This document shows positions 15,174 through 59,768 of a DNA stretch of 64,000 bases, piece after piece (position 1 is the first letter of the stretch; every line of letters begins with the position of its first letter). This DNA comes from an uncultured Alphaproteobacteria bacterium. Its GTDB lineage: Bacteria; Pseudomonadota; Alphaproteobacteria; ATCC43930; CGMCC-115725. Below the pieces are notes generated by a model. It was not told the DNA's origin and made no database searches. It was given only the letters and a program-made list of their open reading frames with translations. The position numbers and the translations under genes are program-made. Where the stretch lies: assembly GCA_963735445.1 (NCBI GenBank), contig CAVTLC010000048.1, positions 5,721 to 69,720 of the forward strand. The letters run 5' to 3'.

Positions 15174-15832
15174 TTGGCTGAAATCAACCTGCTGCGCCGA
15201 TATCCGCGCGCAAAGCGCAACATCGGAATGCGAACAGTCGCACAAAGCGCTGAGAACATCCGTATCGCTCGTGAGTATGGACGCGAATATTTCGACGGGT
15301 CGCGCGACACCGGATACGGCGGTTACCGTTATGATGGGCGATGGATCCCGATTGCCGAGGATATAATCGAGCACTTCCGGCTCAAACCGGGCGATCGGGT
15401 GCTCGAGTCGGCTGCGGCAAAGGTTTTCTCGTCAAAGACCTGCTTAAGGTGAGCCAAGGAATTGAGGCTTTCGGGCTCGATATTTCCGAATACGCGTTGA
15501 TGCATTGCGAACCTGAGGTCATCGGCCGGCTGCACCTTGGCGACTGTGTCAAGCTGCCGTTTCCAGACAACAGCTTTGCCGCGACCATCGCGATCAACGT
15601 CGTCCACAATCTTGAACGCGCCGATTGCATTGCGGCTGTCAAGGAGATCGAACGGCTGTCGCCTGGAAGGGCCTACATTCAAGTCGATTCCTATCGCACG
15701 CCGGAGGAAAGGCAGCTTTTTCTCAGTTGGGTTCTAACCGCAAAGACGCATCACGATCCCGTAGGCTGGCGCCAACTGTACGAGGAAGCGGGTTACACGG
15801 GCGATTACTATTGGACAATTATCGAGGCATGA
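15174..15832 (+). pseudogene. class I SAM-dependent methyltransferase with one frameshift (possibly a sequencing artefact)
   Basis: ORFs 15174..15452 and 15341..15832 join as ...KPGDRVLE|VGCGKGFLVKDL... The DNA reads ctcgag-tcggctgc where gag gtc ggc tgc is expected, so one G is missing near 15406. Confidence 0.8.
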
Positions 15833-15845
15833 GAGGCTCGGAGCG

Positions 15846-55097: not shown

Positions 55098-58000
55098 ATG
55101 GCCGTGCCCGGGAGACAGGGACTTTACGATCCGCGCAACGAGCATGATTCCTGCGGCGTCGGCTTCGTCGCTAACATAAAAGGGCGAAAATCGCACGACA
55201 TCATCGAGCGCGGCCTGCAAATATTGGTAAATCTCGACCATCGGGGCGCTGTCGGCGCCGATCCGCTGGTCGGGGATGGCGCCGGCTGTCTGATCCAGAT
55301 GCCGGATGCATTGCTGCGTGATTGGGCAAACAGTCAAGGTCTGACACTACCCGCGCCCGGACAATATGCGGTCGCGATGTGCTTTCTGCCGCGCGACAAC
55401 GAGGCGCGCGATTTTGCGATCGGTCATATCGAGCATTTTATCCGCGCTGAAGGCCAACCCTTGGTCGGGTGGCGCGACGTGCCGATCGACACGACCGGGC
55501 TTGGTGAACGTGTCATCGAAACGATGCCTGTCATCCGCCAGGCGATTATCGCCGCCGACCCGGCGCTCCCCGATCAGGACGCGTTCGAGCGCAAGATCCT
55601 GACGATCCGCAAGCAGACGCTGAACACCCTGACCGCGCTTAGTCAGCAACACGGTCTCCCGGGTCTGCCCGAATTGTATATGCCGTCCTTTTCGACGCGC
55701 ACCCTTGTTTACAAGGGTCTCTTATTAGCGCCGCAGGTTGGCAGCTTTTACCAGGATCTGCGCAATCCGCTGACTGTCTCGGCGCTGGCGCTCGTTCACC
55801 AGCGATTTTCAACCAATACCTTTCCGTCCTGGCGGCTCGCTCATCCCTATCGGTTCTTGTGCCACAACGGCGAGATCAACACGGTTCGCGGCAACGTCAA
55901 TTGGATGCACGCGCGCCGCCAGGCGATGACGTCGGAATTGCTGGGCTCCGATCTCGCGAAGATGGTGCCGCTGATCGGGCCAAACCAATCCGACACCGCC
56001 TGCATTGACAATGCACTCGAATTGCTGGTCATCGGCGGTGGCTACTCGTTGTCGCATGCGATGATGATGTTGATCCCCGAGGCGTGGGCCGGCGACCCGC
56101 TGATGGATCCGCAGCGGCGGGCGTTTTACGAATATCATGCGGCCTTGATGGAGCCGTGGGACGGTCCGGCGGCGATCGCCTTTACCGACGGCCGTCAGAT
56201 CGGCGCTACCCTCGACCGCAACGGCTTGCGGCCGGCGCGCTATGTGATCACTGACGACGATCACGTGATCATGGCGTCGGAGGCGGGCGTCCTGCCGGTG
56301 CCGGAGGAACGCATCCGGCGCAAATGGCGGCTGCAGCCCGGCAAGATGCTGTTGATCGACTTTGAGGAAGGCCGGATTATCGACGACGACGAGATCAAGC
56401 AAAAGCTCGCCGCCGAGCACCCATACGAATCGTGGCTGAAGGCAACTCAGTTTAAGCTCTCTGAATTGCCTGATGTATCCGAGGGTAATCTTGAAGAGTA
56501 TTCCCGGGCGCTCGTCCCAACGCGACCCAACGACCCAGCGACGCACCTGAACCAGCAGCAGGCCTTCGGGTACACCCAGGAGGACATCCAGTTCTTTCTC
56601 GAACCAATGGCGCGCGATGCCGACGACCCGGTCGGCTCGATGGGCACCGACACGCCGATCGCCGCACTCTCGACCAAGCCCAAGCTGCTTTACAATTATT
56701 TCAAGCAGAATTTTGCCCAGGTCACCAATCCGCCGATCGACCCGATCCGTGAAGAATTGGTGATGTCGCTGGTGTCGATGATCGGGCCGCGGCCGAACCT
56801 GTTAGGTCACGAAGCCGGCTCGCATTACCGGCTCGAAGTGGCGCAGCCGATCCTGACCGATGTCGACCTACAAAAGATCCACGCCATCGAAACGCTGGTC
56901 CCGGCCTTCCGCACCGACACGCTCGATGCCACCTGGCCGGCGGCCGAGGGCGCCGACGGCATGGCGCCGGCCCTCGACCGGTTGTGTCGCGAAGCAACCG
57001 CGGCTGTCGAGGCCGGGCACAACATCCTGATCCTGTCAGACCGGGCGACTTCGGCCGAACGGGTGCCGATCCCGGCGTTGCTCGCGACTTCGGCGGTGCA
57101 CCATCACTTGATCCGGCAAGGGCTGCGGACTCTAACCGGCATCGTGGTCGAAACCGGCGAGGCGCGCGAGGTCCATCATTTTTGCGCACTTGCCGGCTAT
57201 GGTGCCGAAGCGGTCAACCCCTATCTCGCCTTTGCCACACTGGAGCAGATCCGGATCGAAAACGATCTGCCGCTTACCGCTGAGGCGGTGCAGAAGAATT
57301 ACCTGAAGGCGGTCGGCAAGGGCATCCTCAAGGTCATGTCCAAGATGGGCATTTCGACCTATCAGTCCTATTGCGGCGCGCAAATCTTTGATGCGGTCGG
57401 CCTCGCCAGCGATTTTGTCGAGAAATACTTTACCGGGACGGCGACGACGATCGAGGGCGTGGGTCTGCGCGAGATCGCTCTAGAGGCCGTCGAGCGCCAC
57501 CGCCACGCCTATGGCGAAAACCCGATCTATCACGAAATGCTCGATGTCGGCGGCGATTACGCGTTTCGGCTGCGCGGCGAGGATCACGCTTGGACCCCGC
57601 AATCGATTGCGAAATTGCAGCACGCGGTGCGTGGTAACTCGCAAGACGAGTATCGCGCCTTTGCCGCCACGATTAACGACCAGAGCGAGCGGTTGCTGAC
57701 TATTCGCGGGCTGATGACGTTAAAGCGCCGCCGCGCCGGTGCCGCTCGATGAAGTCGAGCCTGCCAGCGAAATCGTCAAACGGTTTGCCACCGGGGCGAT
57801 GAGCTTTGGTTCGATCAGCCGCGAGGCGCATACGACCCTGGCGATCGCGATGAACCGCATCGGTGGCAAGTCCAATACCGGTGAAGGCGGTGAGGAGGCG
57901 AGCCGCTTCAAGCCGCTCGACAACGGCGATTCGATGCGCTCGGCGATCAAACAGGTCGCTTCAGGCCGGTTTGGCGTCACCACCGAATACCTGGTCAACG

Positions 58001-59768
58001 CCGACGATCTGCAGATCAAGATGGCGCAGGGCGCCAAGCCCGGCGAAGGCGGCCAGTTGCCGGGCCGCAAGGTCGACAAGAACATCGCCCGGGTGCGTTA
58101 TTCGACGCCCGGGGTCGGGCTGATCTCGCCGCCGCCGCACCACGATATTTATTCGATCGAGGATCTGGCGCAGCTGATCCACGATCTGAAAAACGCTAAT
58201 CCGCGGGCGCGCATTTCGGTCAAGCTCGTTTCCGAAGTCGGCGTCGGCACGGTTGCCGCCGGCGTCAGCAAGGCGCGCGCCGACCACGTGACGATCGCCG
58301 GGTATGAGGGCGGCACCGGCGCCAGCCCGCTGACCTCGCTGACCCATGCCGGGTCGCCATGGGAGATCGGCCTCGCCGAAACCCAGCAGACCCTGGTGTT
58401 GAACGGGTTACGCGGCCGGATCGCGGTCCAGGTCGATGGCGGTTTGCGCACCGGCCGCGACGTCGTCGTCGGCGCGATGCTCGGCGCCGATGAGTTTGGG
58501 TTTGCGACGGCGCCATTGATCGCCGCCGGCTGCATCATGATGCGCAAATGCCATCTGAACACCTGCCCGGTTGGCATCGCCACCCAGGATCCGGTGTTGC
58601 GCGCCCGCTTTACCGGTCAGCCGGAGCACGTAATCAACTACTTCTTCTTTGTCGCCGAAGAAGTACGCGAGCTGATGGCGCAGCTCGGCTTTCGCAAATT
58701 CAACGACATGATCGGCCGGGTCGATCGGCTCGACATGGTCCGGGCAATCGAGCATTGGAAGGCAAAGGGCGTCGACCTGTCGCGATTGCTCCACTCGGTG
58801 ACGCCAAAGCCGGGGGTCGCGATCTATAATTGCGAGCGTCAGGATCATCATCTCGACAAGGCGCTCGACAATGAGCTGATTGCGGCATCGCAACCCGCTC
58901 TCGAAGAGCGCCAGCCGGTGCGCATCGAGTGCCAAATCCGCAATGTCCACCGCACCGTCGGCGCGATGCTCTCCGGCGAGGTGGCGCGGCGCTACGGCCA
59001 TGTTGGTCTGCCGCAGGACACGATCTGGGCTCGCTTTCACGGCAATGCGGGACAAAGCTTTGGCGCGTTTTTGGCCCGCGGGGTCACGCTCGAGCTGTAC
59101 GGCGACGCTAACGACTATGTCGGCAAAGGGCTCTCGGGTGGACGGCTGATCGTGCGCCAACCGCCTGACGCACAGCGCGAACCGACCGAAAACATCATTA
59201 TCGGCAACACCGTTCTCTACGGCGCGATCGCTGGCGAAGCCTATTTCGAGGGCGTTGCGGGCGAGCGGTTCGCGGTGCGCAATTCCGGTGCTGTCGCGGT
59301 TGTCGAAGGCACCGGCGATCATGGCTGCGAATACATGACCGGCGGGGTGGTCGTCGTGCTCGGCGATACCGGGCGCAATTTCGCCGCCGGGATGTCCGGC
59401 GGCATCGCCTACGTCTGGGACCCGAAGGGGCGCTTCCGTGATTTATGCAATCCCGCCAGCGTCGATCTGGAGACGATTGCTGCTCCCTGAGCCCGAGCGA
59501 GGCCGATGACCCCGATCGGCCGCATCAGCGTTCGCCCTCGGTCGAGGATGCGGGGATGGGCGATTTACTGCGGTTCGACGCCGCCCGACTGCGGATCGTG
59601 CTCGAACGCCATCACCTGCTGACCGGCAGCGCCCGCGCCCGCGCTCTGCTCGAAGACTGGGACAACACCCTCGCCGCTATCGTCAAGGTGATGCCCAGGG
59701 ATTACCGCCGCGCCTTGCTCGAGCTGAGGAGCGAACAGGAAGCTGCGCGGATGGCCGCCGCCGAGTGA
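55098..59768 (+). pseudogene. gltB: glutamate synthase large subunit with two apparent compensating frameshifts (probably sequence errors)
   Basis: N-terminal amidotransferase CGVGFVANIKG. FMN domain [34 protein letters not shown]...QLPGRKV. C-terminal GXGXG domain. Frames run 0/1/0, switching near 57726 and 59485. Confidence 0.95.

Follow-up and report, generated by a model that had tools for sequence, protein, structure and literature searches.

In genome erosion of the type known from Mycobacterium leprae, a high fraction of genes is interrupted, essential genes are spared, nonsense codons and deletions occur among the lesions, and the lesions are shared across a lineage. Here we examine a 64,000-nt stretch of contig CAVTLC010000048.1 in the assembly GCA_963735445.1 (G000:C48:5721-69720; hereafter the window, to whose positions all coordinates refer unless stated), in which a series of otherwise well-conserved genes, including tyrS and gltB, is broken by frameshifts. 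Consensus sequences from Nanopore reads are known to retain insertions and deletions (indels) that cause frameshifts, and a metagenome-assembled genome (MAG) can reach high-quality status despite many of them (PMC9262707); one large set of soil MAGs was produced with Flye and a single round of Medaka, without short-read polishing (PMC12313526). We find that the approximately 20 one- or two-base indels in 11 to 13 genes of the window are very probably errors of the deposited consensus and not mutations of the organism, to judge from comparison of assemblies. The indels occur in this assembly alone, similar breaks are spread over the whole genome, and many of the inserted bases carry a signature in which two alleles stand side by side. 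A preliminary description of the stretch had pointed to homopolymer indels as the error mode; that mode accounts for a minority of the events, and the mechanism is better described as mainly the doubling of single-nucleotide polymorphisms (SNPs) between strains, plus some run-length errors.

The genome to which the window belongs (G000) comprises 4.94 Mb in 55 contigs, with a G+C content of about 62%, and is 94.4% complete and 1.3% contaminated. To judge from how close homologues of its TyrS, radical-SAM and GltB proteins are named, it is a MAG of an uncultured bacterium of the Stellaceae (Alphaproteobacteria), and long reads were most probably the only data from which it was assembled. Three fragments of the window, used as protein queries, matched near-identical proteins on public contigs, from which DNA of the same species was fetched. 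The long references among these are four ENA contigs with Flye-style names (ERZ25039489, ERZ25039517, ERZ25039558 and ERZ25039463), which share 97-98% identity with the window over 12-21 kb (97.05% over 21.3 kb for ERZ25039489), and the short ones are JGI contigs from 3300036401, 3300053085 and 3300053084, which are 94-97% identical to it. Between 15.4 and 21 kb a single same-species reference, ERZ25039489, is available, together with a distant homologue in the relative G005. Because plots of third-codon-position G+C by frame did not tell true from shadow frames at 61% GC, breaks were located instead by tblastn of intact orthologues, from relatives within the genus or from the same species, against the window, and by nucleotide alignments.

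All 18 of the frameshifts previously described in 11 named genes are present, in that orthologues change frame at each of these places, and the gene identities proposed then agree with the Pfam matches given below. Amino-acid identity is equal before and after the breaks (for example 93/90/93% for the three parts of tyrS and 91/98% for the two of gltB), which bears out the observation that coding sequence is conserved on both sides. Every window break that is covered by the four ENA and three JGI references is absent from all of the references covering it. Across 11.7 kb (48.1-59.8 kb), indels of a length not divisible by 3 and private to one assembly number 6 in the window, 12 in ERZ25039517, 6 in ERZ25039558, 4 in ERZ25039463 and none in the JGI contigs, and ERZ25039489 likewise has breaks of its own at 26705, 29599, 15702 and other positions. 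When the window is compared with the JGI contigs, the only indels in coding regions are the frame breaks of the window (26554, 26733, 49810, 49978 and 53577), and the three JGI contigs contain no private coding indels. Some single-nucleotide insertions are identical in two ENA assemblies, at 48404 and 50607 in ERZ25039517 and ERZ25039463 and at 56861 in ERZ25039517 and ERZ25039558. Such coincidences would follow from the presence of one pair of alleles in several samples, and since insertions recur at strain-SNP sites, the sharing of an indel between long-read MAGs is no proof that it is real.

Similar irregularities are visible in neighbouring assemblies. A 593-aa "fusion protein" of radical SAM and glycosyltransferase-2 parts (P0187) has entered the protein database from ERZ25039517 (L073:10001-11782, corresponding to window 51075-52855); its source is a +1 error at the counterpart of position 52014, where the window and the JGI contigs have two genes, of 350 and 246 aa. 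The species representatives G012 and G031, in 8 and 20 contigs respectively, also have private frame breaks. In G012, a stretch of about 5.7 kb (L015:2750-8525; G012:C3 at approximately 1283150-1288900, matching window 49100-54820) holds about 70 private single-nucleotide insertions, which are missing from the window and from G031; G012 was discarded as a reference for the stretch matching 49.1-54.8 kb, where G031 and the same-species contigs were used.

The defect extends well beyond the window. As a genome-wide reference we used G010, a relative in 260 contigs that resembles a short-read assembly, of which 258 kb of DNA was taken. Aligned with G000, open reading frames (ORFs) of G010 reveal 22-30 changes of frame over 135-143 kb (0.16-0.21 per kb, the range depending on the identity filter), and 14-20% of orthologues, spread over many contigs, are hit; in the opposite direction, with G000 ORFs set against that G010 DNA, a single change appears in 142 kb. 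Essential genes are included. Outside the window, rpoC is split at G000:C22:42848-42852, within the conserved SGARGS/QLAGMRGLMAKPSGE stretch, the frameshift falling between ...MMSDSG and ARGSAAQIKQLAGMRGLMAKPSGE, and the adjacent rpoB is intact (an open frame of 1418 aa). Other broken genes of G000, recognised by eye from their sequences, are gltX (twice), pgk, ribD, nuoG and the genes for acetyl-CoA synthetase and NAD-glutamate dehydrogenase. Further copies of tyrS, gltB and anmK were not found in the G000 assembly, so the broken tyrS is its only one.

No substitution-type nonsense codon was found in true reading frames among approximately 45,000 codons genome-wide, nor was any found in the window, where the aligned residues number about 20,000 if each reference is counted separately. 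Each stop that tblastn reports can be traced to a shadow ORF, to sequence ahead of a start codon, or to a frameshift at the same place or immediately before it. With the called genes of same-species contigs as queries, 5 stops were left in those 20,000 or so residues: there is one at 16044, one in degT between 17616 and 17760 and one, counted once, at 59488, all at or just after frameshift junctions of the window, and two are due to an error of ERZ25039517 at 45747.

These results bear directly on whether the lesions could be real, through recent pseudogenisation in a hypermutator or in a lineage, host-restricted or under relaxed selection, that gathers frameshifts throughout its genome. Breaks in 14-20% of genes are what eroding genomes display, and a very recent burst could also leave the coding sequence undecayed. 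Real gene decay should, however, bring substitution-type stops too, and there are none beside 22-30 frameshifts, which speaks against decay; moreover, rpoC and the single tyrS are both broken, the former within a universally conserved motif, as would be expected if the errors were blind to selection and struck essential single-copy genes as readily as accessory ones. The lesions are common to no relative, the four sister long-read assemblies have other private sets and the short-read contigs have none, and a genome of 4.9 Mb in a soil family carries no signs of reduction. We regard pseudogenisation as very improbable, in keeping with the lower rank it had been given at the outset. The expectation that most breaks are assembly artefacts is thus upheld, as is the warning that conclusions on gene loss from this sequence are unsafe, since essential single-copy genes are broken and conservation is undiminished past the breaks.

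How such errors arise is suggested by multiple alignments around each site, in which the extra base of the window is recurrently the base that another strain or species has at the adjacent position. The window reads GC at 26733, where ERZ25039489 has C against G in the JGI contig and G012. It reads CA at 28490, where the base is A in ERZ25039489 and C in G012 and others, and CT at 49810, where C occurs in ERZ25039558 and sister species and T in other strains. At 54286 its AG combines the A of ERZ25039517 and ERZ25039558 with the G of ERZ25039463 and G031. Both alleles are present in the window at 26554, 26733, 28490, 49810, 54286 and 59496, and, when alleles of sister species are considered, at 49978 and 53577. 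To quantify the pattern, we took the 27 single-base insertions between 48.1 and 59.8 kb that occur in one or two of the four long assemblies. Of these minority insertions, 19 repeat the alternative allele of their neighbour, against a null of 0.069 obtained from every base at every position in those alignments (P = 1e-16), and between 26.5 and 37.4 kb the two alleles stand together in 4 of 6 (null 0.087, P = 7e-4). Insertions that copy the allele of a neighbouring SNP are unlike mutation, a further point against pseudogenisation.

We take these both-allele insertions to be the signature of consensus building or polishing on read piles of mixed strains. Where reads of different strains differ by a SNP, the consensus would keep both alleles side by side, giving the +1 events that appear to be the main mode of insertion; at some strain-SNP sites it would keep neither allele, giving a -1 deletion, and the window deletions at 29575 and 40372 do fall on variable sites. 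A smaller share would be plain run-length errors in short homopolymers or repeats. The private indels, their spread over the genome and the both-allele signature are shown by the data, whereas the platform that produced the reads and the precise step at fault in consensus building are matters of inference.

An alternative within the same general explanation is that the artefacts are purely miscalls of homopolymer length by the platform, strain mixture having no role. Run length is indeed changed at 16044 (T6 to T5), 17759 (A4 to A3), 20856 (A3 to A2) and 35427 (GG to GGG), and several other indels adjoin runs of 3-4 bases, at 16162, 26733, 49810, 49978 and 53577. To that extent the earlier statement that breaks often lie in a short run holds as to position, but the length of a run of at least 3 bases is altered in only 4-6 of the 21 window events, depending on how the ambiguous cases at 26733 and 29575 are counted. 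Among the 27 minority insertions, just 5 lengthen an adjacent stretch of the same base, against the 19 that repeat the alternative allele, and the sites at 26554, 28490, 54286, 59496, 15406 and 17497 lie outside runs. Homopolymer miscalling as the sole source of the errors is therefore very unlikely, and errors at strain SNPs, with a minority in runs, fit the window better.

The two breaks of tyrS (26473-27776, reverse strand; Pfam tRNA-synt_1b), a +1 at 26733 and a +1 at 26554, sever the C-terminal S4-like part of the protein. Orthologues from five relatives change frame twice here, ERZ25039489 and a short JGI contig lack both extra bases, and on the JGI contig tyrS is intact, at 417 aa with its S4 domain; the private -1 of ERZ25039489 at 26705 also falls in this gene. 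Next to it, anmK (27781-28885, forward strand; Pfam AnmK on both pieces) is broken by the +1 at 28490, where the window reads TTGCAGCGG, ERZ25039489 reads TTGA-GCGG and other relatives read TTGC-GCGG or TTCGC-GCGG. A luciferase-like monooxygenase (28889-30147, reverse strand; Bac_luciferase on both pieces) has a -1 at 29575, adjoining AAA at a site where relatives have C or A; orthologues of seven relatives change frame at 29575-29602, and ERZ25039489 has its own -1 close by, at 29599. The gene for an NHL-repeat beta-propeller protein (35105-36089, reverse strand; Pfam NHL) contains the +1 at 35427, where six relatives change frame (35427-35428), and the base is missing from G012, G031, G011 and ERZ25039489, in which the protein is intact at 319 aa.

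Further along, a molybdopterin oxidoreductase of 246 aa if intact (49528-50267, forward strand; Pfam Oxidored_molyb) is broken by an extra C at 49810 and another at 49978, both at C/T sites where the C of the window precedes the T of other strains. Orthologues from G031, G002 and G006 change frame twice, and ERZ25039517, ERZ25039463, ERZ25039558 and a short JGI contig are without the extra base. A GT-C-like membrane protein of approximately 560-660 aa, with no Pfam match (53350-55077, reverse strand), has an extra G at 53577 and a +1 at 54286; the G031 orthologue changes frame at 53540-53580 and at 54282-54283, three ENA assemblies lack both bases, and a JGI contig lacks the one at 53577. In gltB, encoding the large subunit of glutamate synthase (55086-59768, forward strand), two bases are lost at 57725 within a GCC repeat and are present in ERZ25039517, ERZ25039558, ERZ25039463 and G031, and an extra T at 59488 is accompanied by an extra A at 59496. 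The gene is broken in ERZ25039517, ERZ25039558, ERZ25039463 and G031 too, at other places (56861, 57478, 58114 and 59487). At 59485-59496, ERZ25039558 and ERZ25039463 have CC for CCC, the window has the added T and A, and ERZ25039517 and G031 look correct; this short interval may be a systematic error hot spot.

Two places in this part of the window were not in the preliminary description. One is a minor break in an MFS transporter (38882-40390, forward strand), where a -1 at 40372 affects only about 6 residues at the C-terminus; G012 and G031 have A here and G018 and G005 have T, the site lying outside the same-species references. The other is the 5' end of a periplasmic binding-protein gene (47990-48070, forward strand), where +1 events at 48012, 48034 and 48068 leave the frame regained after 56 nt; these bases are private to the window and missing from all same-species references and from G012 and G031. 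They belong to a cluster of window-private indels at 47914-48068, covering the promoter and 5' end of this gene and including a 15-nt insertion, which may be real divergence or error.

With the sites set out in this way, programmed recoding, by which ribosomal frameshifting or transcriptional slippage would mend the frames in vivo, can be weighed as well. Some sites adjoin short runs, and no specific support was found beyond this. The roughly 20 sites lie in unrelated genes with no common slippery motif, they involve both +1 and -1/-2 events, and they are absent from all relatives and from the assemblies of the same species. Recoding is accordingly a vanishingly improbable explanation.

The densest group of breaks, at 15.4-20.9 kb, lies in a run of genes that appear to act on glycans. 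A class I methyltransferase (15174-15832, forward strand; Pfam Methyltransf_11) has a -1 at 15406, where CTCGATGTCGG becomes CTCGA-GTCGG; the G005 homologue changes frame at 15407-15428, and the ERZ25039489 contig holds the extra T. Towards the C-terminus the window agrees with G005, and ERZ25039489 carries a +1 of its own at 15702, which is an error of that assembly. Two further candidate breaks, at 14802 and 15121, were seen relative to a 358-aa call in ERZ25039489 and were rejected, both lying upstream of the real start as judged from the G005 protein. The N-terminal transketolase subunit (15846-16664, forward strand; Pfam Transketolase_N) has three deletions: the run-length change at 16044, the loss of a G after CCCC at 16162, and CC reduced to C at 16478. 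The intact 274-aa protein of ERZ25039489 aligns to it as four frame pieces at 92-98% identity, and G005 agrees. The C-terminal subunit (16664-17578, forward strand; Pfam Transket_pyr and Transketolase_C) has a +1 at 17213 (C to CC) and a -1 at 17497, the 305-aa protein of ERZ25039489 aligning across three frames at 93-99% identity.

A DegT-family aminotransferase (17587-18956, forward strand; Pfam DegT_DnrJ_EryC1) follows, with the -1 at 17759. In its C-terminal tail, at 18823-18930, four single-nucleotide differences from ERZ25039489 (-1, +1, +1 and -1, summing to zero) can be assigned to neither assembly. In the next gene, which is glycosyltransferase-like and of about 735 aa (19057-21257, forward strand), a probable extra break not previously described is the -1 at 20856: a 504-aa piece of ERZ25039489 reads through where the window shifts, and at 19754 the window reads through and ERZ25039489 shifts. 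The break at 20856 probably belongs to the window, a judgement made on open-frame continuity only, with no third reference.

In all, 8 of the 9 frame-disrupting events at 15.4-20.9 kb are deletions, whereas insertions dominate the rest of the window, and their density of about 1.6 per kb is several times the average. This deletion-rich stretch is not accounted for by SNP doubling. It is conceivable that the cassette is a surface-polysaccharide locus undergoing genuine decay in this strain and that only the other breaks are consensus errors, an idea that we consider decidedly unlikely; our guess is that low effective coverage of a strain-variable island lies behind the density. The wider region, 12994-26271, has the appearance of a surface-polysaccharide locus, with an ABC-2 permease and ATPase (wzm/wzt-like), then the methyltransferase, the split transketolase and the DegT gene, two large proteins without a confident Pfam match (about 735 and 987-1018 aa) and an RmlD-like reductase. 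The region recurs in a same-species contig, and no near-identical counterpart was found in other species of the genus.

Several points weigh against the conclusion that the breaks are consensus errors. The case is built on a comparison of assemblies, which proves no single position wrong. The references of the same species are other strains, 2-5% divergent, so that a real mutation specific to this strain could in principle look alike. At 15.4-21 kb, the erroneous assembly was picked by open-frame continuity and the distant G005 homologue, with one same-species reference. A connection to a Nanopore-only project is guessed from the contig names and the accession series of the sister assemblies, and a search for a tie between this record or the ERZ assemblies and the soil MAG set of PMC12313526 found none. 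Lastly, the window has a density of breaks of about 0.45 per kb, roughly twice that of the genome sample.

The significance of these findings lies in data hygiene and not in biology. About 1 gene in 5-6 of a public species-representative genome is split or fused by consensus errors, and until G000 is polished, its apparent pseudogenes, lost genes, incomplete pathways and "fusion proteins" cannot safely be relied on. The same caution extends to the sister MAGs G012 and G031 and to the ERZ250394xx/395xx assemblies, several public genomes of the genus being affected. The both-allele signature, a +1 base repeating the allele of a neighbouring SNP, offers an error flag that can be read without reads, and our results suggest that correction oriented towards homopolymers would miss most such errors.

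Among known systems, G000 resembles M. leprae-type erosion in its high fraction of interrupted genes, and differs from it in that essential genes are hit, nonsense codons are absent and the lesions are not shared across the lineage. Its closer likeness is to long-read-only Nanopore assemblies and MAGs as seen in IDEEL-type protein-length tests (PMC9262707; proovframe preprint 10.1101/2021.08.23.457338), in which indels of 1-2 bases split conserved genes throughout the genome. As in such long-read-only MAGs, essential genes are hit, short-read assemblies are without the indels, and the MAG is still 94% complete. Unlike the errors stressed in the Nanopore literature, which centre on homopolymers, most insertions here sit at strain SNPs and do not change the length of a run.

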